From assembly GCA_964429815.1 (NCBI GenBank), contig CAYSCM010000001.1:416001-480000 (forward strand): 64,000 nt of DNA, given 5' to 3'. Positions 12,110-27,813 of the stretch are shown one piece after another; position 1 is the stretch's first letter; each line of letters begins with the position of its first letter. The translations under genes were made by a program, and so were the position numbers. Under the pieces are notes generated by a model. The model did no database searches. It saw only the letters and a list, made by a program, of their open reading frames with translations, and was not told the origin of the DNA. The DNA is from an uncultured Candidatus Saccharibacteria bacterium. GTDB lineage: Bacteria > Patescibacteriota > Minisyncoccia > Phycocordibacterales > CAYSCM01.

Positions 12110-13299
12110 TTATCTCCTTCTTTTGGCTTGAGACCTTGGGGGACGGCTTTGATCACCGCCCCGAGCGTGGCCGCGGGGGATGCGAGACCGTCGGCGCCGA
12201 CGGCGATGAAGGTATCGACTTCCTTAGCCACTTGGACTGCAGTGTCGCGTGCGAAGATGAGTTCGAGCGCACGCGGCTTGTCGCCGCCTTGCGCCGCGAG
12301 CTTTTCGATCGCTTGTGCGTCTCCTTCCGCCTCGTACGAGGTAGCATCTCCCTTCGCCCGACCAGCAATACGGGTGGCCTCACCCTCGGCAAGCGCCTGA
12401 GCGGGCTTCTGTATCGACGTATTGAGCGCGTGAGAGAAATTGAAGAGCTTGATGTTGGCGGTATCGACTTCGACGCCGCCCTTGCCAAGTTTCTCTTCAA
12501 TGAGTGTTCGCAGGTCTACGTTGATAGTCGACGTGCCCCGAAGGGCCTCGGCTGCCGTCCTCGACGGAAGTGTTTCGCTCAGCCCCGTCACGATTGTGTC
12601 TTCAGCTTGCTTCATGGCGGCCGCAAGGTCGCCATTGTACAGGACGAAGAACTCTCGCAAATTTCCTTTTTCGGGTCTGATCTTAAGGATCGCAGCGACC
12701 TCCGCAGTGATGCGGCGGTCGAGCGGATCCTGACCATCCTTGCCGGCGAACGTGATACGCACCGGCGGGTAGTACCCCTCAGCGACGGTGTCTTTGTCGC
12801 CACGATCAACGAGTTCCGGCTCGCTCGGGATCTCTTTTTGCAGCAGCTCGAGATCGGTGATCCGGAGCATGCTGAGAAAGAGGGGAGCATAAACGGGCCC
12901 GTTGGGAAGTTCGCAAACGACCCAGCCGAAGATGCTGAGCACTGCTCCTTCGTTGATATCTACCTCCTCGAAGCTCTTCCACGTGTAGAGTGTGAAGAGC
13001 ACAAGAAGGATCGGGATCACGGGAATGTTGAGCTGGCCGAGCTTGATTGAACTTGCCCCGAGGTTGGAGTAAACGACCAGCAAGGCAAAACTAAGAAGGA
13101 GGATGTTGGCGAAGAGTGCAGCAAGGTGCCAGACGAACCAATTTCTGGTCAAGCGCCCCATCACCGAAGCCTTGTGCCGTTCCTCGTCGGAACCGCCTGA
13201 GGCGGGACCTGCAGGGGGCGTTGGTGGGGTGGGAGGGGCTGGAGGTGTTGGAGTCCCAGCGCCGTTTGGCGGCTGGGTTGGCGTTGCTGTCTGTTGCAT
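12106..13299 (-). CDS. SPFH/band-7 (stomatin/prohibitin-like) domain protein with Pro-rich N-terminus
   Basis: 397 aa. PTPP repeats, one TM, then a band-7 core (VDLRTLIEEKLGKGGVEVDTANIKLFNFSHA...AEGEATRIAGRAKGDATSYEAEG). Confidence 0.7.
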   Translation of the reverse strand: MQQTATPTQPPNGAGTPTPPAPPTPPTPPAGPASGGSDEERHKASVMGRLTRNWFVWHLAALFANILLLSFALLVVYSNLGASSIKLGQLNIPVIPILLVLFTLYTWKSFEEVDINEGAVLSIFGWVVCELPNGPVYAPLFLSMLRITDLELLQKEIPSEPELVDRGDKDTVAEGYYPPVRITFAGKDGQDPLDRRITAEVAAILKIRPEKGNLREFFVLYNGDLAAAMKQAEDTIVTGLSETLPSRTAAEALRGTSTINVDLRTLIEEKLGKGGVEVDTANIKLFNFSHALNTSIQKPAQALAEGEATRIAGRAKGDATSYEAEGDAQAIEKLAAQGGDKPRALELIFARDTAVQVAKEVDTFIAVGADGLASPAATLGAVIKAVPQGLKPKEGDK

Positions 13300-13392
13300 A
13301 ATGAACCTCTATGCAGTTGTGTGGGAACGGGATACTGCCTGGAATTCAAGCATAAAATTTCAAAAAAGTCAAGGATTGCGCGGCGGAATGGC

Positions 13393-13419
13393 AAAAAAGC
13401 CCTCAAAATGGGCTTTTTT
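13393..13419. terminator. bidirectional intrinsic terminator
   Basis: aaaaaagccc-tcaaaat-gggcttttttg. A-tract and T-tract flank a GC stem. Downstream of the tRNA-Leu(TAG) 3' end on the minus strand. Confidence 0.5.
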
Positions 13420-13434
13420 GCGTAGAGCACAATG

Positions 13435-13516
13435 TGGGCGAGAGAGGACTTGAACCTCCACCCCTTGCGGGACGCGGTCCTAAGCCGCGCGCGTATACCA
13501 ATTCCGCCACTCGCCC
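13435..13516 (-). tRNA. tRNA-Leu (anticodon TAG), type II
   Basis: Minus-strand cloverleaf: acceptor GGGCGAG/CUCGCCC, anticodon loop CUUAGGA, long variable arm UCCCGCAAGGGGUGGAG, T-arm GGAGG-UUCAAGU-CCUCU. No encoded CCA. Confidence 0.8.
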
Positions 13517-13568
13517 GTATGTGTATTCTACATCCTTGCCGTCACGAATAATTTGATTGCCGTCGAAG

Positions 13569-13678
13569 AGGACTCGGTCCTTACAGGACCAGTACCCCGA
13601 TTGGATAGTTTGCTTCGGCTCCTCGCAAACTATACTCAATCGGGCTTCGAGTCCTGCACGCAAACGCACCGCGTTTGC
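13569..13678. other. structured spacer between tRNA-Leu and tRNA-Lys (multi-hairpin element)
   Basis: 8-bp enclosing stem aggactcg(13569-76)/cgagtcct(13648-55). It contains hairpin ggtcc-ttaca-ggacc and a 16-bp hairpin cgattggatagtttgc/gcaaactatactcaatcg. Followed by hairpin gcaaacgc-acc-gcgtttgc. Confidence 0.3.
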
Positions 13679-13703
13679 TCGGGCGGCACTCGCTGCGCTC
13701 GTG

Positions 13704-13776
13704 TCCGCCCAGCAGGACTCGAACCTGCGACCAATTGCTTAAGAGGCAACTGCTCTACCAACTGAGCTATGGGCGG
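13704..13776 (-). tRNA. tRNA-Lys (anticodon CTT)
   Basis: Minus-strand cloverleaf: D-arm GCUCAGUUGGUAGAGC, anticodon stem GUUGC/GCAAU with loop CUCUUAA, T-arm GCAGG-UUCGAGU-CCUGC. Acceptor begins with a C1:G72 pair. Confidence 0.75.
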
Positions 13777-13818
13777 AAAAACAGAAACGATAGTAGCACG
13801 CTCTTCCGTATGAATGAA

Positions 13819-13838
13819 GCCCCGCATTGCTGCGGGGC
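13819..13838. terminator. intrinsic terminator after 13845-14186 gene
   Basis: gccccgca-ttgc-tgcggggc hairpin, followed on the minus strand by UUCAUUCAUAC. Confidence 0.4.
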
Positions 13839-13844
13839 TTTAGC

Positions 13845-14186
13845 CTAGGCGGCCATGAGGTTTTCGATGAGGACGACACCATCCCGGTAGCGTGGGTGTG
13901 TGCTTTCGAGTCCCCAGGCATGTACCGGCGTCGAGTTCTGGTTGTCGCTCTTGAGGACGATTTTCTTCCCGGATTCGTCGGTGAGCGTAAGATGCCACTG
14001 GTCGACGATCCAGAACTTGATAAAGTTGATCTTCTGTTCCTTCGCGAACCGAACAAAGGCCTTGGGATCGCGCGAGGTGAATTCGAGGCGATTCTCGTGA
14101 ACGGCTCGATCCTCGTATTCGCCTTCCCAGCGCTGGAAGATAACGACATGCTTCAGCTCCGGTGCACCCACTTCCATATTCGGCAT
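13845..14186 (-). CDS. hypothetical protein (113 aa)
   Basis: Start moved to ATG 14186, which has a consensus SD (AGGAGGCUAAC-AUG). MPNMEVGAPELKHVVIFQRWEGEYEDRAV...KINFIKFWIVDQWHLTLTDESGKKIVLKSD. No confident family. Track ORF start at 14270 lies inside a tRNA-derived repeat. Confidence 0.45.
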   Translation of the reverse strand: MPNMEVGAPELKHVVIFQRWEGEYEDRAVHENRLEFTSRDPKAFVRFAKEQKINFIKFWIVDQWHLTLTDESGKKIVLKSDNQNSTPVHAWGLESTHPRYRDGVVLIENLMAA

Positions 14187-14245
14187 GTTAGCCTCCTGTT
14201 TCTTGTTCCTGCCCGACTCTAGCAGGAAGCATTCTTTTTTCAATA

Positions 14246-14270
14246 GTGCCGGGGGTGGGGGTCGGCACAT
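14246..14270 (+). repeat. partial direct duplicate of the tRNA-Leu(TAA) 3' end (att-like)
   Basis: gtgccgggggtgggggtcg (19/19) plus cacat matches plus-strand 15813-15840, which is the 3' half of tRNA-Leu(TAA). Same orientation, 1.55 kb away. Confidence 0.6.
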
Positions 14271-14339
14271 CCGGCTTCCAAAATGCCGAACACGGCGCCT
14301 GCCCGTCCGAAGCTTTAGCGAAGGAGGGAGGCCGCTTCG
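14263..14339. repeat. 77-bp inverted repeat, left copy (IR-L)
   Basis: Reverse complement of 15543-15619 with one mismatch (76/77). Abuts and overlaps the tRNA-derived repeat by 8 nt. Confidence 0.8.
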
Positions 14340-14470
14340 TTGACAATATAAAATTTTTCTTTGGCGGACTAATTCGAGAATGCGCGGAGCGTATACAATA
14401 TTGTTCTTTGAAAAAATAAAGAGCGCCCCATCGCTGGAGCGCTCTGTGTCGAGTTGAACGGCGCGAGCCG

Positions 14471-14809
14471 CTACTTGTCGGACTTTTCGGCCCCTTGCAG
14501 CTTGCAGTCGGCGTAGGCCCAGACGTAGCGGGTGCAGGTGAATGCGCCGGGTTTCTGGAGATATGCCGAGATGAACTTCGGCTCCTTGGTCTCGTCCTCC
14601 TTGCCGCCGCAGTCGAGCTTCATCACCACTTTGGTATTGGTGGCATCGTAGGATTTCGCGGTGCAGATCGCGTCACGAGCGACGACGGTATTGCTGACGA
14701 TAGCCGCGTGGACGCCCCACTGAATGCCACCGCTGACGGCGATGACGATGCCGAAGCCGAACAGCTGCTTCCACGTCATGACGAAGTTGCCGACGAATCG
14801 GTTCCTCAT
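14471..14809 (-). CDS. hypothetical small signal-anchored protein with 4 Cys (112 aa)
   Basis: ATG 14809 overlaps the upstream stop (ATGA). N-terminal hydrophobic LFGFGIVIAVSGGIQWGV, then a domain with C-x-n-C-x-n-C-x-n-C (CTAKSYD...LDCGG...FTCTRYVWAYADC). Confidence 0.45.
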   Translation of the reverse strand: MRNRFVGNFVMTWKQLFGFGIVIAVSGGIQWGVHAAIVSNTVVARDAICTAKSYDATNTKVVMKLDCGGKEDETKEPKFISAYLQKPGAFTCTRYVWAYADCKLQGAEKSDK

Positions 14810-15309
14810 GACACCGCTCCCTGTGCTTGGTGGTTGAAGGTGATGATCGGGCAGACCTTCTGCTTGGCCGCCACGATGTATTGCCACACGACCTGCCAGA
14901 AGCCGGGACCCGTCGGCGCCGGAGCGGCGACCTTGGGCGGTTCCTTCTTCTTTTCAGGCTTGGGCGCGGGAGAAGGTTGCCGCCCCCACTCCTTCAGCCG
15001 TCGGAACAGCGCCTTCAGACCGATGATAACGCCGACGACGATTGCGAGTGCGCCGACGACATACGCATAGCCGGTGCCGCCCCAGAAGTAGATGGGTAGC
15101 GCCGTCAGTGCGGCGACACCCGAGCCGTACACCACTGCGTTGAGCAGCAGCACGAGCGGGCACCAGACCAGCATAACGCGCAGGAAATGGCACAAGTTTG
15201 TGCCGTCCCGATAGTGCCACGAGTCGTCGCCGCGGTCCTTGAACTCGTCCCAGACCGTCAAAGACCAGAAGAACCAACGGACGTACCACTGGCGTTTGTC
15301 CAACTCCAT
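14806..15309 (-). CDS. hypothetical membrane protein (167 aa; 2 TM, Pro/Lys-rich linker)
   Basis: Start set to ATG 15309 with SD AAGGGGAG-7nt-AUG. The track M at 15342 is a TTG codon. W-rich N-terminus, TMs VMLVWCPLVLLLNAVVYG and YAYVVGALAIVVGVIIGL, then PSPAPKPEKKKEPPKVAAPAP. Confidence 0.45.
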   Translation of the reverse strand: MELDKRQWYVRWFFWSLTVWDEFKDRGDDSWHYRDGTNLCHFLRVMLVWCPLVLLLNAVVYGSGVAALTALPIYFWGGTGYAYVVGALAIVVGVIIGLKALFRRLKEWGRQPSPAPKPEKKKEPPKVAAPAPTGPGFWQVVWQYIVAAKQKVCPIITFNHQAQGAVS

Positions 15310-15542
15310 GATGTTTCTCCCCTTGAAAATTGGCCAAAACAAGCCAAGGATTGTGTACCACTTCCAAGCATCAGTGTCAAGTTGTGGCGAACTGTCGCAC
15401 CGAAAGAGTGTTTAGTAGCTAATCGTTCTGTATGCCAAAAAGTTTTCTTTTTCCTGACATAGATTCAGAGCGGGCTTCGCCCGCACCGAGTGAGAATGGT
15501 TTGCACCGATGTTTTTCTCCGGGCTCTTTTGCGGTTTTCGAG

Positions 15543-15619
15543 CGAAGCGGCCTCCCTCCTTCGCTAAAGCTTCGGACGGGCAGGCGCCGCGTTCGGCATT
15601 TTGGAAGCCGGATGTGCCG
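15543..15619. repeat. 77-bp inverted repeat, right copy (IR-R)
   Basis: cgaagcggcctccctccttcgctaaagcttcggacgggcaggcgccgcgttcggcattttggaagccggatgtgccg is the reverse complement of 14263-14339. Confidence 0.8.
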
Positions 15620-15810
15620 CGCCGCCGCCCTCGCCACCGACGGCGCGGCTGGTTCGAGTTATTTCTAGTATTCTGCACTATAGCAGGCAACTGCTTGCCT
15701 GCGTGTGGGCATCGAAGGCCGCAGTGATGTTTCGTTAGGAGACGAAACCGCGGGGCGGGGTCGCGACCGAGGCGAGCGGCGGCGAGCTCTGATTTGTAGT
15801 TTCAAACTTG

Positions 15811-15897
15811 GTGCCGGGGGTGGGGGTCGAACCCACATCTCTTGCGAGGCACGATTTTAAGTCGTGTGCGTATACCAATTCCGCCACCCCGGCGTTC
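15811..15897 (-). tRNA. tRNA-Leu (anticodon TAA), type II, CCA encoded
   Basis: Acceptor GCCGGGG/CCCCGGC, anticodon stem CACGA/UCGUG with loop CUUAAAA, long variable arm, T-arm GUGGG-UUCGACC-CCCAC, 3' ACCA. 5' end is 2 nt from the NUDIX stop. Confidence 0.85.
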
Positions 15898-15899
15898 GT

Positions 15900-16295
15900 C
15901 TATTGTAAAACCTTTTCGAGTTTACTCGGAAGCGCGGGGTATGCAAACGGATAGTTTTGAAGCTCAGCGATCGAGACAAATGCATACTCCTGGTGCTCGT
16001 GGCTAAGTTTTAGTTGCGATAGGTCTTTGATTTGAACATCAAACACGACCGCGTACGTAAGCCCTGATGTACTAATGTCGACATCCACAATTTTATTCAT
16101 CCCGCCCACTTCGAGATCGGTCTCTTCTCGCGTCTCTCTCTGTAGTGCTTCAAAACATCCCTTATCGCGATGCTCCATGCGGCCGCCGGGCAGCATCCAA
16201 CCGTTTTTATTTTTCAAAATCAAAATTTTACCGTCCCCACTTCGGATGATTGTCTGCTGGCTGATGAAATGAGGTTTGTGATCGGTTTGATTCAT
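15900..16295 (-). CDS. NUDIX hydrolase
   Basis: Nudix box GGRMEHRDKGCFEALQRETREETDLEV. Start set to ATG 16295 because the track ORF N-terminus overlaps tRNA-Cys; the AUG lies 5 nt after the tRNA-Cys 3' end. Confidence 0.7.
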   Translation of the reverse strand: MNQTDHKPHFISQQTIIRSGDGKILILKNKNGWMLPGGRMEHRDKGCFEALQRETREETDLEVGGMNKIVDVDISTSGLTYAVVFDVQIKDLSQLKLSHEHQEYAFVSIAELQNYPFAYPALPSKLEKVLQ

Positions 16296-16299
16296 GTAG

Positions 16300-16374
16300 T
16301 GGAGGCCCAGACCGGAATCGAACCGGCGCATCGCGGTTTTGCAGACCGCTGTGTTACCACTTCACCACTGGGCC
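16300..16374 (-). tRNA. tRNA-Cys (anticodon GCA), CCA encoded
   Basis: Acceptor GGCCCAG/CUGGGCC, anticodon stem GCGGU/ACCGC with loop CUGCAAA, T-loop UUCGAUU, 3' UCCA. Confidence 0.85.
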
Positions 16375-16379
16375 AAGTA

Positions 16380-16712
16380 TTACTTTTCGCTATCTTCCTC
16401 GACAAGGCGATCTAGACGTTGCCGATTCCTTTCGCCCTGGTCAAGTGTAACACTAAGCGACGGTACCCTCGCGATGCGGGATTCCTTGGCAACGTACGTG
16501 CGAAGGTCGCCGAGGTTGCGCTTTAAGAATGCGAGTGCGGGTTTTTCTTTTTCCGTCGGAAACACGGTGACAAAAATAGTCGCGTACTTAAGGTCGGGGC
16601 TAAGTTGTATGCGCGTCACCGTAATAAGCGACGTGCGGTTGCTCTCCGAGGCTATATAACGACCGATAACGGTTCGAAGCTCCTCGCTCACTTTTTCCTG
16701 GCGCTCGCTCAT
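16380..16712 (-). CDS. rbfA: ribosome-binding factor A
   Basis: 110 aa. SLITVTRIQLSPDLKYATIFVTVF matches the RbfA KH-like core. TAATG overlap with the infB stop. Confidence 0.75.
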   Translation of the reverse strand: MSERQEKVSEELRTVIGRYIASESNRTSLITVTRIQLSPDLKYATIFVTVFPTEKEKPALAFLKRNLGDLRTYVAKESRIARVPSLSVTLDQGERNRQRLDRLVEEDSEK

Positions 16713-18214
16713 TAGCGTTTGACGACGACAAAGCTCTGGAGTTCGTCTCCGGGCATTATTTCAATCTTTGATTGCACTTCGGCGCCGAATTCTCCATCGG
16801 TTACCTTCTTTACATCAACTTTCTGCTGCTGGAGGTTGGTGATTTTACCCTTGCCGACCTCGAGCTTTTGGCGAATAATCTTTACCTGATCGCCGAGCGC
16901 GATGGCTCCTTCCTCCATCCGCGCGCCGATAACGTGCTTGTCCTTAGTCGTATTGAATTTTCGCAGCACTTTGAGACGAGCAGAGCTTTCTTCGACGTCG
17001 ACCTTCGGCGCGGCCGTGGTCAGTTTTTCAGCGAGCCACTCGGAGAGTTTGTAGATGATATCGAAAGTCGCTACTTCGACGCCATCGCGTTCCGCCAAAA
17101 TTTTCGCCGCCGACTCGACCGGGGAATTGAACCCGACAATAATGCCCTTTTCCGTACCAAGGGCCTTTACGTCGGCCTCGGAGACGGGTCCGACACCGCG
17201 CTCTACGATCTTCATAGTGATGCGTTCGTGGGAGAATTTCGCAAGCTCATGCTCGATGGCTTCAAGCGAGCCCGCGGTGTCCGCTTTTATTACGATAGGC
17301 AGCCGAAGTTTTTCACCCTCCGACGCGCTCACCGGAGTTTTCTTTTTCATGGCGAGACGTTCGGTCTTGGTTATTTCCTCGGCCTCCTTTTTCTTTTCGA
17401 CCGCTGTGAAGGGCGAGCCGACCTCGGGGAGTTCGCTCCAGCCGATGATGCGCGCGGGGGTGCCTGCAACGATCTTCTTTGCGGGCTTTCCCAAAAAATT
17501 TTCCATAATACGAACGGGGGAGTATGCCGCCCCCGCGATCACAAAGCTGCCGCTCGCCAAGGTACCGTCTTTGACGATAAGGGTCGCTGCGATGCCGCGC
17601 TTGGGGTCGCGGTGCGCTTCGATGACAACCCCGGAGGCAGGCGCGCGCGGATCTGCTCGAAGCTCTGCGAGGTCGGCGACGAGGAGAAGAATGTCGAGAA
17701 GTTGCGGAATACCCTCGCCCGATTTCGAAGAAATGGGAACGTACGGTACATCGCCACCCATGCCTTCAAGATAGATTTCATTCTCAATCAAATTTGCTTT
17801 GACGCGTTCGACGTTGGCGTTTGGCTTATCGATCTTGGTGATAGCGACGACGAAGGGACGCTTAGCGTCTCTGATCGATTTGAGCGCTTCGAGCGTCTGC
17901 GGTTTTACGCCGTCCTCTGCGGATACCACAAGGATGGCAATGTCGGCAGCATCCGCGCCGCGCGAGCGCATTTTTACGAACGCCTCGTGGCCGGGCGTGT
18001 CGAGGAAGGTGATCGTGCGCAAAGCGCCTTTCTCACCCTTATGCGTGACCTCGTACGCAGAGAGGTGCTGCGTTATGCCACCCGCCTCTTTTTCGACGAC
18101 GTTTGTTTTACGAAGGTAATCGAGAAGTGTCGATTTGCCGTGGTCGATGTGTCCCAACACGGCGATAACAGGAGCTCGCGTTGAAAGGGAAATAGCTTGT
18201 GTCGTTTTTTCCAT
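16712..18214 (-). CDS. infB: translation initiation factor IF-2 (short form lacking the long N-terminal region)
   Basis: GTP-binding [29 protein letters not shown], and the C-terminal IF2 domains. 500 aa. Confidence 0.9.
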
Positions 18215-25013: not shown

Positions 25014-25055
25014 CAAAACAAAAACCCACAGCGAAAGGCTGTGGGTTTTTGTTTT
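25014..25055. terminator. bidirectional intrinsic terminator
   Basis: A-tract, cccacagc-gaaag-gctgtggg, then tttttgtttt. Confidence 0.6.
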
Positions 25056-25073
25056 GGCTCTATACTTAACTCA

Positions 25074-26366
25074 ATGAGCAAAAAGCTCGCCTTCTTTATA
25101 TTTATTGTGTCTGTCGTTGCCGTGTTGGTCGCGACAGCAGTGCAGACATCCGCGGCTCCCATCGTGCCGCAGGTATCCGCCCAGCCCGGCTCTGTTGAAG
25201 GCGGTCCGCTTCGCGCCTGCGACCTCCTCACCCTCTACAACAACATCCTCCGGTTCGGGATCTATGCTGCGACGGTTATTGCGACCCTCATGCTTACCTA
25301 CGCGGGCTTCCTCTACATCACCTCCTCGGCCAAGATAGGAAACATTGAAAAGGCACACGGGATTTTTACCAATGTCATCATCGGCTTCATCATTGTCCTC
25401 GTCGCGTGGCTTATCGTCTCGACTCTTTTGCGCGTGTTTACCGCGCAATCGAACTACAATCCGTTCGCCGCGATACAGTGCAATGTTGAAACACCGACGA
25501 CGACGCGCAACGTCACCCCTGCCGGATTTGAAACACAGTCCTATTCTGACTATCCCACCGGTCTTCCCGCCGGAGAGGTTCCGGTGTGCCTCACCGCCGA
25601 TAGCGACAGCAATTGCACCACCTACGCTTCCATCGGGCTGCAAGACTCGACCCTTCTTGAGTGCCAGGATCCCGGAGCAACCGGCGAGCAGTACTGTTGC
25701 TCGATGACTAACGCCGACGGCTCATGTAAGCTAGCGGTCACGGTCGGGCCAAATGGCCAACCTTCCTACAACAACGATGTGGGTGAGAATCTCTACGTAA
25801 ATCCGAATGTGGGGCTCACTGGCGTTGCCCCGACAGAAGGTATTTGCTCCCCGGATGCGCTCCAGAGCGTGTGGGGAGATAACGCCGCAACCGCTGGGTG
25901 CATATGCGCTTCAGAAAGTGGTGGGGGGCTCTACAACGGCATTACGGGCCCGCGCACGGACGTCATGCTCATCGATCAACAGCAGCCAGATGGTTTTTAT
26001 CCAGGTTTTTCGGCATGCCCATTCCAGCTCAACGTCACGAGCCTTCCGGCACAATATGGTGGATGTGGCGCGTATACCTGCAATACCAACACACAGGCGT
26101 GTATGATAAACGGTGTATTAACGCCACCCAATCCCACGAAATGCGATACAAATGTATCAGCCTATGAGCAAACCCTTGGATACAAGGAAGGGGCTCTGAG
26201 TCGAAACGGAGGCTATTGCCATGTGATAACCAATCAACCCGCCTTTAACTCCTGCGTGCAAAACCTTCTTACACCCGGGGGATGTGCCAAGGGAGCTCAA
26301 TATCTTCTTGCCAATGGCGGCTGGGCGCACTGGAGTACGAGCGCTAAAAAATGCCGAGCTATATGA
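25074..26366 (+). CDS. pilin-like (TrbC/VirB2-type two-TM domain) N-terminus fused to a large Cys-rich extracellular domain
   Basis: Start set to ATG 25074 (MSKKLAFFIF); the track start 25041 lies within the terminator. Signal peptide, then LRFGIYAATVIATLMLTYAGFLYITS...NVIIGFIIVLVAWLIVSTLLRVF, then about 300 aa rich in Cys/Gly/Thr/Asn. The N-terminal domain is paralogous to 26920-27813. Confidence 0.5.
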   Translation: MSKKLAFFIFIVSVVAVLVATAVQTSAAPIVPQVSAQPGSVEGGPLRACDLLTLYNNILRFGIYAATVIATLMLTYAGFLYITSSAKIGNIEKAHGIFTNVIIGFIIVLVAWLIVSTLLRVFTAQSNYNPFAAIQCNVETPTTTRNVTPAGFETQSYSDYPTGLPAGEVPVCLTADSDSNCTTYASIGLQDSTLLECQDPGATGEQYCCSMTNADGSCKLAVTVGPNGQPSYNNDVGENLYVNPNVGLTGVAPTEGICSPDALQSVWGDNAATAGCICASESGGGLYNGITGPRTDVMLIDQQQPDGFYPGFSACPFQLNVTSLPAQYGGCGAYTCNTNTQACMINGVLTPPNPTKCDTNVSAYEQTLGYKEGALSRNGGYCHVITNQPAFNSCVQNLLTPGGCAKGAQYLLANGGWAHWSTSAKKCRAI

Positions 26367-26923
26367 GAAAACTATTACTCACCATCGTGCTCCTTCTTGT
26401 AGCGGTTGTCATCGGTGGTGGAATCTACGTATTCCTCGTTTCGCGCAGCACCCAGCCGGCAAGCGTACAAAACGAAACGGGAACTTCGCCTTTTGGCAGC
26501 GGCGCAGGAGCTATTCCTTCTGGCGGCAGCGGGCAAGGAAATACCACGTCCAGCCAAACCTCGGAGCAATTCATCGTCCTGGGAGCTGACGGTAGCATGA
26601 TTTCGGTAGCTGACTTCCGCTCAGAGCCGGGAGTGCAAGAGCTTTCTGACGGGAGCTATCGGCTCGGTCCATTCACCGGAAGCTCGACGTATCAAATTCT
26701 CTACTATGCCGCCGACAAGAGCTTCACGGTGACTCTTCTCGAGGAGCCACTGGGAGCCACGAGAGAGAGCGCAGAGCAGTACCTCATGAATGCTCTCCAA
26801 ATCGGCAAACCCCAGATGTGCAGATTGCGCTATGGTGTCTACGTGCCCATCAAGATCAGCCAGTTCTATGCGGCCACCAATCTCGGATTTAGTTTCTGTC
26901 CTCGCGCGATAAAACTACCATGA
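26351..26923 (+). CDS. hypothetical membrane-anchored protein (N-terminal TM, extracellular domain)
   Basis: 190 aa. Overlaps both neighbours; an alternative ATG at 26363 forms an ATGA overlap, and its 3' end forms ATGA with the next gene. TM LLLTIVLLLVAVVIGGGIYVFLV. Confidence 0.45.
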   Translation: MPSYMRKLLLTIVLLLVAVVIGGGIYVFLVSRSTQPASVQNETGTSPFGSGAGAIPSGGSGQGNTTSSQTSEQFIVLGADGSMISVADFRSEPGVQELSDGSYRLGPFTGSSTYQILYYAADKSFTVTLLEEPLGATRESAEQYLMNALQIGKPQMCRLRYGVYVPIKISQFYAATNLGFSFCPRAIKLP

Positions 26924-27813
26924 TACGCACCGCCGCAATCGCGCTCATTCTCTTGTGCGTCTTTGTCGTGACACCCTTTGCGCACGCGCAGAGTTTTGCT
27001 GGTCCCATAGTCCCCGATTGTGGTGGTGGCCCGTGCCAAGCCTGCCACCTCGTAAAGCTTGCGGACAACCTCCTGCGTTTCGGCATCTATCTGGCGACCG
27101 TCATTGCGACTCTAATCCTTGTCTATGCGGGTATTCTCTACATCACCTCAGCGAGCAACCCCAGCAATATTTCGAAAGCACACAGTTTATTTGGGAATGT
27201 CATTCTCGGTTTTATCATCATACTCATCGCTTGGATCGTCGTTGCTACGCTGCTGCGGGTTTTTCTCGGACAGGGCAAAGCTCTTCCGTGGGAGCAGCTC
27301 ACCTGTAACGTCACGGCGAATCCTGGCCCGACACCCTCGACCACGCCTCCAGGACTAACCGTAGCACCCCTTGCAGCTCCGCCAGGGGAAGGACAGCTCA
27401 CTGATCCGCAGGCGCGCCTTTCAATTGCCGCCTATAATGAGTCTCATCCTGACGCGCAGGTGTTAACTTGTGGTGATACAGCTTCCTGCCCGGCAATTCG
27501 CGACCGCGTCCTGTACGGCGGTATTGATAACGGCCTTCTCCAAAATGTCCTTGATACTACCTCTGCGGCCAATAGGGGGAACACCATTGTTACCTCCGCG
27601 GCAAATGAGCGTACTTCAGCTTCCAATCACCCAAGCGGCAATGCAATTGATATATACGGCACAAGCGCTTTCAATGCCTATGTTCAAAGCTTTCCGGCGG
27701 TCCCAGGTCTTTCAAACACATACCAGGTCGGGAATTATCGATACTGGTGGGAGCCATCAGGCACGGCTAATTCAACAGGGGACCATTGGCATATCTCAAA
27801 GACCGGACGTTGA
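26920..27813 (+). CDS. pilin-like (TrbC/VirB2-type) N-terminus fused to a peptidase-M15-like (Zn D-Ala-D-Ala carboxypeptidase/cell-wall hydrolase) C-terminal domain
   Basis: N-terminus LLRFGIYLATVIATLILVYAGILYITS...NVILGFIIILIAWIVVATLLRVF parallels 25074. C-terminus carries SNHPSGNAIDIY and GDHWHIS, matching the M15 S-x-H-x-x-G-x-A-x-D and D-x-x-H zinc-ligand motifs. Confidence 0.5.
   Translation: MIRTAAIALILLCVFVVTPFAHAQSFAGPIVPDCGGGPCQACHLVKLADNLLRFGIYLATVIATLILVYAGILYITSASNPSNISKAHSLFGNVILGFIIILIAWIVVATLLRVFLGQGKALPWEQLTCNVTANPGPTPSTTPPGLTVAPLAAPPGEGQLTDPQARLSIAAYNESHPDAQVLTCGDTASCPAIRDRVLYGGIDNGLLQNVLDTTSAANRGNTIVTSAANERTSASNHPSGNAIDIYGTSAFNAYVQSFPAVPGLSNTYQVGNYRYWWEPSGTANSTGDHWHISKTGR

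Follow-up and report, generated by a model that had tools for sequence, protein, structure and literature searches.

How did a small operon bracketed by 77-nt inverted repeats come to stand between a tRNA gene and a second copy of that gene's 3′ end, and which of these repeats, if any, mark the ends of a mobile element? We considered these questions for a locus beside tRNA-Leu(TAA) in a 64-kb stretch of contig CAYSCM010000001.1 from an uncultured Candidatus Saccharibacteria bacterium (the whole stretch that was analysed is referred to here as the window). An earlier note on this DNA had offered two answers: a decayed integrative element inserted at the tRNA 3′ end, or a non-autonomous unit resembling a miniature inverted-repeat transposable element (MITE) or insertion sequence (IS). 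The first is the best-supported reading, given the repeat of attachment (att) type, the mobility of the cassette and the lack of a recombinase in cis. We favour, with moderate confidence, the interpretation that window positions 14246-15829 represent a small integrated element without a recombinase of its own, of the type of a cis-mobilizable element (CIME) or decayed genomic island, with a moron-like cargo. The two junctions of this putative element are formed by the following features.

15809-15893, minus strand: tRNA-Leu(TAA), on the attL side, found by ARAGORN and Rfam (59 bits), with an encoded CCA.
14246-14264, minus strand: displaced tRNA-Leu 3′ end, on the attR side, followed by the host flank TATTGAAAAAAG, without CCA.
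13845-14243, minus strand: host-side flank with a promoter-like site (14243-14216) and open reading frame (ORF) C (13845-14186, 113 aa).

The window contains two exact, directly oriented copies of the 19-mer GTGCCGGGGGTGGGGGTCG (plus strand) and no others; they lie at 14246-14264 and 15811-15829, and the latter copy constitutes the final 19 nt of tRNA-Leu(TAA) ahead of its CCA. The number of matches expected by chance in shuffled sequence is 0.02, even with up to three mismatches permitted. Beyond the 19 nt the two copies agree only over the 5-nt sequence CACAT, after a 3-nt indel. The direct repeat that the earlier note had put at about 25 nt is therefore real, its exact length is 19 nt and the larger figure was generous; the signature of insertion at the tRNA 3′ end that was read from it is borne out. 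One end of the element carries the intact tRNA gene, as judged by both ARAGORN and Rfam, and the promoter-like site of ORF C directly adjoins the fragment at the other.

The two copies of the repeat also differ in what follows them. Among the eight tRNA genes of the window (13434-47128), CCA is encoded only in tRNA-Leu(taa) and tRNA-Cys(gca) and is absent from the other six. The fragment at 14246-14264 ends in GGCAC followed by TATTG and so is CCA-less, like six of the seven other tRNA genes. The encoded CCA of tRNA-Leu fits a 3′ end supplied by the element, because six other tRNA genes of the window are without it. Moreover, the encoded CCA and the trailer behind it (module a, below) recur in two related loci, L052 and L017. 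From this recurrence and the CCA-less fragment we infer that the present tRNA-Leu 3′ end is element-borne and that the old one has been pushed 1.56 kb away. ORF C may be host DNA or belong to an older island between tRNA-Leu(taa) and tRNA-Lys(ctt), and its product has no match in Pfam, PHROGs, NCBIfam or PADLOC.

No recombinase is encoded within the element, in agreement with the earlier note, and none was found among the ORFs of the 64-kb window that were tested, by tblastn with the recombinase and helix-turn-helix (HTH) protein of a related locus (L002, below) and by Pfam analysis of 20 candidate ORFs. The check for a tyrosine or serine integrase elsewhere, which that note had proposed, thus gave a negative outcome within this range. 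A search with Rfam over 13000-17000 returned tRNAs only. CIMEs are defined as units that are flanked by attL and attR and from which the integration and transfer genes are absent (PMC6323972), and the combination of att repeats with the lack of a recombinase therefore places the element within this definition. As there is no recombinase in cis, the description 'decayed or non-autonomous integrative element' holds, and the element is not autonomous.

Between the direct repeats lies a single operon, consisting of the two overlapping genes that had been noted before, a Trp-rich protein with two transmembrane segments and a Pro/Lys linker and a small anchored protein with four Cys residues. Both are present as stated.

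14806-15312, minus strand: memA, 167 aa, a small membrane protein.
14471-14809, minus strand: smallB, 112 aa, a membrane-anchored protein with four conserved Cys residues.
15313-15454, minus strand: predicted promoter and 5′ untranslated region, with a −35 element TTGACA (15380-15375), a 17-nt spacer, a TG-extended −10 element TACACA (15357-15352) and the ribosome-binding sequence GGGGAGAA.
14420-14445, minus strand: intrinsic terminator with an 11-bp stem, then TTATTTTTT.

Relative loci were labelled L001 to L056, and the cassette comparison spans window positions ~14330-15550. At least six further contexts in Patescibacteria contain the cassette, with a DNA identity of 82-88%; most copies stand beside differing tRNA genes, and their flanks share nothing else with the window. 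Because the cassette recurs at this level of identity in unrelated contexts beside other tRNAs, the comparison indicates that the DNA between the direct repeats is mobile. The loci are arranged as follows, with the letters for non-coding modules that are described below.

L017: tRNA-Val(tac), a, cassette, arm-s-box, rplS.
L052: tRNA-Arg(cct), a, u-cassette, arm-s-box, glutaredoxin gene.
L028: tRNA 3′ end abutting module u.
L055/L056: tRNA-Leu(tag), cassette, gene for a major facilitator superfamily (MFS) transporter.
L053/L054/L018: two other small-gene cassettes, cassette, tRNA-Lys(ctt), y-a, rbfA-infB.

More distant copies reside near tRNA-Arg(ccg) or tRNA-His, or amid core genes (groES/secG, secE, mnmA). 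In the close copies that reach either end (L017, L052, L028, L053/L054 and L018) the cassette is without the long inverted repeat.

The cargo that travels in this way is, by its predicted signals, a moron-like self-contained expression unit with its own sigma-70-type promoter, two genes and its own terminator. The memA stop and the smallB start overlap in the sequence ATGA, and the two genes are predicted to be translationally coupled. The promoter pattern TTGACA-17 nt-TGnTAnAnA is kept in 11 of the 12 homologous loci that were aligned, the exception being L014, the most distant; a simple consensus scan had missed this promoter because its −10 element is imperfect. The same upstream alignment of 12 loci revealed a conserved leader and a purine-rich site of Shine-Dalgarno type (consensus AGGAGA, GGGGAGAA in the window). 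The memA product has a Trp-rich N-terminus, two long hydrophobic helices and a Pro/Lys linker, with the conserved motifs WYVRWFFWS, GTNLCHF and, at the C-terminus, KVCPxITF. In smallB, an N-terminal membrane anchor is combined with the four conserved Cys residues and a YLQKPGPFTCTRY motif.

Residues 2-163 of memA match PHROG 944 (E = 2.4e-12), which is annotated as a membrane protein in the category 'moron, auxiliary metabolic gene and host takeover'. An AlphaFold (AF2) model of memA is helical with two long hydrophobic helices (predicted local distance difference test score, pLDDT, 78), and its sole structural neighbours in BFVD are uncharacterised proteins of ~150 aa from large lytic phages (E = 7e-4). 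The memA family comprises 821 clusters (50% identity, E ≤ 1e-3) and the cluster of memA itself at 90% identity has 11 members; named database matches of the family are to Patescibacteria (Minisyncoccia, Paceibacterota, Saccharibacteria). A tblastn search of GenBank phages with memA gave no match, and a fold search of the cargo against the PDB found nothing. In Pfam and NCBIfam the cargo gave only sub-threshold matches to transmembrane segments, and in PADLOC none. The earlier proposal of a toxin/immunity or exclusion function is not supported by these searches, which yielded no PADLOC match and no informative Pfam or NCBIfam match and linked the cargo only to uncharacterised phage membrane proteins.

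Homologues of memA with 33-37% identity were also seen without a recognisable smallB, in L010/L024 (3460-3888) and in L011/L012/L026, which are IMG/VR or metagenome contigs of 46-152 kb; one of these genes lies near a ParB-like gene. On this evidence a memA-type protein occurs also by itself, on putative phage or plasmid genomes.

The operon of the window is surrounded by the two arms of the inverted repeat and by a set of non-coding modules that can be traced in related loci.

14263-14339: left (terminator-distal) arm, whose outer end abuts the displaced tRNA fragment.
15543-15619: right (promoter-proximal) arm, the inverted repeat of the left arm.
15750-15808, minus strand: module a, the trailer directly after CCA, with the core GAGCTCGCCGCCGCTCGCC.
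15679-15749: module y, with a hairpin GTTTCGT-N6-ACGAAAC at 15729-15748.
15641-15678, plus strand: module box, GGTTCG-N16-TTCTGCAC.
15621-15640, plus strand: module s, C-rich, within a GC hairpin at 15616-15649.
15455-15541, minus strand: module u, a leader that runs from upstream directly into the promoter region; it is also present in L052 and L028.
14341-14411, minus strand: module m, the cassette 3′ motif, CAAAGAACAAT, a GC palindrome, then GCCAAAGAAAAATTT.

The arms are reverse-complementary at 76 of 77 positions (mismatch at 14292 versus 15590), as the earlier note had reported. Counted from the outer ends, the first 29 nt match perfectly, the longest uninterrupted match measures 48 nt, and a weaker extension brings the repeat to 88 nt at 93%. 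We found no third copy of the arm in the window (none is expected in shuffled sequence) and no exact match in a scan of JGI metagenome contigs, so that the search for further copies that had been suggested yielded nothing in these two collections.

The arms are best read as two copies of the element's own att-proximal, terminator-distal region and not as transposon ends, a reading that comparison with the related loci supports. L052 and L017 have a single arm, which lies beyond the terminator and m, and s and box come after it. The order arm-s-box in these loci is the order at the right arm of the window on the plus strand, from which it follows that the window cassette is flipped relative to arm-s-box. 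In the window the arm-s-box block is thus inverted and lies between a and the leader u, with the second arm in the ancestral position after m; there its outer end is cut off by the tRNA fragment, giving the order arm, tRNA block, host. When the window was flipped computationally, it became colinear with L017 from the promoter through box. Moreover, the window arms share a 31-nt segment that is missing from both orthologues, and resemble one another more than they resemble any orthologue. The divergence between the arms is 1.3%, compared with 12-18% between the cassette and its closest relatives, which points to recent duplication or concerted evolution of the arms.

The alternative of arm ends of the MITE or IS type was considered and rejected. 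Some 190 nt separate the right arm from the repeat on the tRNA side, and the arms have no target-site duplication around them, the immediate outside flanks (...GGGGGT and CGCCGCC...) not forming a direct repeat. Apart from the two copies in 64 kb, no dispersed ones were found in the window or in the exact JGI scan, and the inverted repeat does not travel with the cargo, being absent from the other close copies of the cassette that reach either end.

The other modules have histories of their own. The core of a follows CCA at an equal distance behind tRNA-Arg(cct) in L052 and tRNA-Val(tac) in L017, and y is conserved together with the core of a beside rbfA in L053. Window 15718-15787 and L053 1890-1961 form a non-coding block of ~70 nt that is 74% identical and contains the hairpin ATGTTTCGTTAGnAnACGAAAC and the GC-rich core of a. 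This block is on the rbfA-infB side in both, and the infB DNA is only 61% identical. The L053 copy folds strongly (z −6.3), unlike the y/a region of the window, whose fold is not better than that of shuffled sequence. In module s, 12 of 17 positions agree with the 3′ block of the tRNA, in the same orientation. Module m also ends two unrelated small-gene cassettes in L018/L054; a 19-mer from m gave 20 matches in IMG/VR, which we treated as chance because none extends past 19-30 nt.

An array of cassettes was observed in three of the relatives. Upstream of the memA/smallB cassette, L018 (1-1830), L054 (256-1840) and L053 (125-830) carry two small genes, one for 174 aa and one for 131 aa with a signal peptide. 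Behind each gene come a separate terminator, then an m-like motif (CAAAGAACAAT...GCCAAAGAAAAATTTGATA) and an arm/s-like or box-like sequence. Three cassettes with common 3′ modules thus stand head to tail, a layout that recalls the arrays of integrons or of the staphylococcal cassette chromosome (SCC).

We propose the following course of events for the recombinase-less integrated element. A site-specific recombinase that is encoded elsewhere or has since been deleted would have joined the att region of the element to the tRNA-Leu(TAA) gene of the host at its 3′ end. The element would thereby have supplied the final 19 nt of the tRNA with CCA, and then the conserved trailer a, and the original 3′ end of the host gene would have been displaced by 1.56 kb to its present place beside the ORF C promoter. 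The predicted empty site reads ...GGGTTCGACCCCCACCCCCGGCAC joined directly to TATTGAAAAAAGAATGC, and excision at the tRNA repeats would be expected to create a circle with the junction ...GGAAGCCGGATGTGCCG, ACCCCCACCCCCGGCACCA and AGTTTGAAAC in succession. The distal copy of the arm ends exactly at the att junction, and the proximal copy lies in the inverted arm-s-box-y block between a and the promoter leader.

Two scenarios could account for the inverted copy. In the first, it would be a recent duplication in the lineage of the window, perhaps started from a short inverted repeat in the ancestor; L052 carries GGAGCCGCTCCG followed by CTCG upstream of u, a possible seed of this kind. In the second, the ancestor would already have had long terminal inverted repeats (arm-s-box-y), which gene conversion kept similar and which L052 and L017 later lost. 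The proximal repeat of L052 would then have been lost through deletion between the short direct repeats GCCGCYYCG, and in the window a deletion from the block-like s to the terminal repeat would have truncated the distal one, an event that would also account for loss of the recombinase. Excision of the element or flipping of the cassette could occur only through a recombinase acting in trans, or through RecA acting on the arms. On its own the element is probably immobile.

Several points weigh against this explanation. The proximal junction is unlike the simple product of an attP × attB reaction, since a and the inverted y-box-s-arm block stand between the tRNA and the cassette, and at least one further rearrangement is therefore needed. 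When we attempted to derive the window order from that of L052/L017, neither a single inversion nor a single attP × attB event reproduced the arrangement, so that at least two events are required. The search for a recombinase covered only 64 kb of the 501,704-nt contig. Neither the empty site nor the excised circle has been seen; a search for the empty site via homologues of the flanking NUDIX gene, through 5.8 billion proteins, recovered a single distant homologue, whose 1-kb contig is not syntenic. The host lineage is nearly without relatives in the databases, and hence we infer insertion at this locus from the repeat alone. Within this scarcity of relatives, the universal conservation at the locus that the earlier note had named as refuting mobility was not observed. 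Finally, the long inverted repeats of L002 and the arm fragments of L055, which are described next, hint that the repeats may be functional recombination sites.

This last point is the basis of the rival that survives best, which we nevertheless regard as unlikely. It holds that the arm-bounded unit 14263-15619 is itself mobile, as a non-autonomous element moved by a large serine recombinase in trans, the arms being the P and P′ half-sites of a palindromic attP. The target would be an imperfect palindrome made of the tRNA-Leu 3′ fragment and s, and the unit would resemble the pseudo-SCC cassettes that lack ccr genes. In its favour, a recombinase-bearing relative exists, of which three samples were recovered.

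L002/L019/L003: tRNA-Arg(ccg), 150-nt left inverted repeat (IR-L), large serine recombinase gene, HTH gene, memA, smallB, 150-nt right inverted repeat (IR-R).

Here the recombinase gene lies between the inverted repeats, the outer end of which abuts the tRNA 3′ end, and the memA of this type is 70% identical to that of the window. The L002 recombinase has Resolvase, Recombinase and Zn_ribbon_recom domains. Its best named NCBIfam matches, CcrB and XisF, fall far below the cut-offs, and therefore indicate only generic homology among large serine recombinases; no relative of it was found in IMG/VR. The recombinase ORF of L002 (4019-5629, minus strand) was observed to be free of stop codons through the entire 150-nt IR-L and tRNA-Arg(ccg), giving 536 aa against ~457 aa for the recombinase, so that excision or circularisation would give the protein a different C-terminus.

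The window sequences that adjoin the arms on the outside form an imperfect inverted repeat, matching at 14 of 19 positions, as attB half-sites of serine recombinases do, and the joined ends of the arms form a perfect palindrome centred on CG, GGAAGCCGGATGTGC-CG-GCACATCCGGCTTCC. The flip of the cassette against its s-box flank relative to L052/L017 would be permitted by such a symmetric crossover dinucleotide. In addition, L055 has a cassette of the window type with fragments of L002-type arms on both sides (37/37 nt downstream, 70-84% upstream), which indicates that arm-type sequences accompany the cassette repeatedly. Where L055 (1388-1435) and L002 (6991-7040) diverge after the 37-nt identity, L002 reads GGCTTTGTAT and L055 reads GGCATACAAAGCC, the reverse complement over 7-10 nt, a difference that amounts to a small hairpin-loop flip.

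Against a serine recombinase acting on the arms stands the s-box-y flank outside the right arm, which travels with the cassette in L052 and L017 and thus is not target DNA. The other close copies of the cassette lack the inverted repeat, and the arms of the window and of L002 are not significantly similar (z 0.5-2.0), the short motif CCGAAG..GGAGGGAGG being common to the inner ends of both. Neither a serine recombinase in the window nor a further arm copy in the window or in the exact JGI scan was found, and the exact 19-nt tRNA copy would here need a separate and earlier event.

A second rival, which appears quite improbable, treats the arms as sites of programmed inversion, that is, as a phase-variable switch that flips the 1.2-kb operon. 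Near-perfect 77-bp inverted repeats that stand 1.2 kb apart, and an orientation of the cassette relative to arm-s-box that is opposite to that in L052/L017, are what such a switch would display. However, the segment that would invert contains the promoter together with both genes and the terminator, and a flip would therefore not part the genes from their promoter. No invertase is encoded nearby, and the three samples of the L002-type element are all in one orientation. For the window itself, the 48-nt perfect stretch shared by the arms means that both orientations have identical 31-mers, and Logan contigs are consequently uninformative on polymorphism.

It is very improbable that the arms are a fixed regulatory or RNA structure, forming a 77-bp duplex in a transcript across both arms and unrelated to mobility. 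The tRNA-Leu gene is co-directional with the operon, and read-through from it could include the right arm; however, the operon promoter is downstream of the right arm and the terminator ahead of the left one. With the −35 element at 15380-15375 and the terminator at 14445-14420 both between the arms, no transcript should span the two, which makes the mRNA duplex suggested by the earlier note unlikely. Neither arm folds better than shuffled sequence, there is no Rfam match, and the inverted repeat is absent from other copies of the operon. Least probable of all is an assembly artefact in the orientation or duplication of the arms: Logan k = 31 contigs do break inside the arms (L001 corresponds to positions 14310-15572 of the window, and L029/L030 stop ~340 nt beyond the NUDIX gene), but such breaks are expected from any repeat longer than k, the longest perfect stretch of 48 nt is resolved by ordinary reads and larger k, and both arm junctions were recovered independently in two sequencing runs (SRR12313482 and SRR12313480).

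The att-flanked islet that we favour can be placed among several known systems. With CIMEs and other decayed tRNA islets it shares the attL/attR flanks, the tRNA 3′ end and the absence of integration or transfer genes. It differs from CIMEs in being only 1.56 kb long, in containing one two-gene operon and an internal 77-bp inverted repeat, and in its occurrence in Patescibacteria. By analogy, mobilisation of the CIME type might proceed by accretion with an incoming element; we know of no partner integrative and conjugative element in Patescibacteria. Tycheposons of Prochlorococcus integrate at tRNA genes through tyrosine and, more rarely, large serine recombinases, and next to the tRNA they leave behind partial tRNAs as well as cargo and degenerate remnants (bioRxiv 10.1101/2020.12.28.424599). 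Streamlined genomes and remnants on the tRNA side are common to both cases, whereas the window element has no replication or integrase genes and belongs to another cargo family and phylum, and tycheposon arrays show direct partial-tRNA repeats and not long inverted ones.

The SCC and pseudo-SCC elements of staphylococci use large serine recombinases and insert at the 3′ end of a conserved gene, with direct and inverted repeats at their ends, and SCC cassettes without a recombinase are moved in trans. In contrast, the target in the window is a tRNA gene and not rlmH, SCC inverted repeats are short and not 77-150 nt long, and no recombinase was found among the window ORFs tested. Phage morons are units of promoter, gene and terminator found near prophage ends. 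The cargo resembles them in its self-contained promoter, genes and terminator, in the PHROG 944 match of memA and in the phage proteins that are its structural neighbours, but no prophage surrounds the window element, and several Patescibacteria genomes have the gene pair among core genes. Invertons, in which inverted repeats likewise bound a segment (here of ~1.2 kb), differ in that the window promoter is inside the segment with the genes, that no invertase is adjacent and that no second orientation was observed.

The surroundings add little to this classification. The GC content of the element is 58.1%, against 55.9% for the window, a difference that is not diagnostic. The gene content of the window, with a 500-aa IF2 and many tRNAs, is like that of the candidate phyla radiation (CPR). 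Two ORFs on the plus strand, 25041-26366 and 26920-27813, have weak matches to a pilin domain of type IV secretion systems (PF18895; E = 2.7e-7 and 4e-5).

The type of locus that this analysis describes, an att-flanked islet without a recombinase, is already known; here it holds a widely travelling moron-like operon. Mobile DNA is little known in the Patescibacteria (CPR), whose genomes are very small, and in this group a 1.1-kb operon of two genes moves between genomes labelled as differing Patescibacteria lineages, repeatedly at tRNA 3′ ends. A broader proposal, which we put forward more tentatively still than the recombination of the window arms, is that tRNA-targeting elements of very small size (1.5-3 kb) form a family in Patescibacteria, with promoter-gene-terminator cassettes that end in the conserved modules m, arm, s and box, and with bounding inverted repeats of 77-150 nt that are large-serine-recombinase sites. 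L002 might then be the autonomous 3-kb form, with recombinase, HTH protein and memA/smallB, the window a non-autonomous form that is excised, re-inserted or flipped in trans, and the tandem cassettes of L018/L054 arrays made by the same system, a cassette economy in CPR similar to that of SCC and integrons.

If the modules and long inverted repeats are not recombination sites, the locus would be an ordinary integrase-less tRNA islet, of value mainly because it marks horizontal transfer and draws attention to widespread, uncharacterised small membrane proteins common to phages and CPR (821 clusters). If they are, they would define a minimal system of cassette exchange with a compact serine-recombinase/att pair. 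The interest of the finding, which is moderate, lies in the recurrent link of the cassette with tRNA 3′ ends, conserved non-coding modules, long inverted repeats and a 3-kb relative that carries a serine recombinase.

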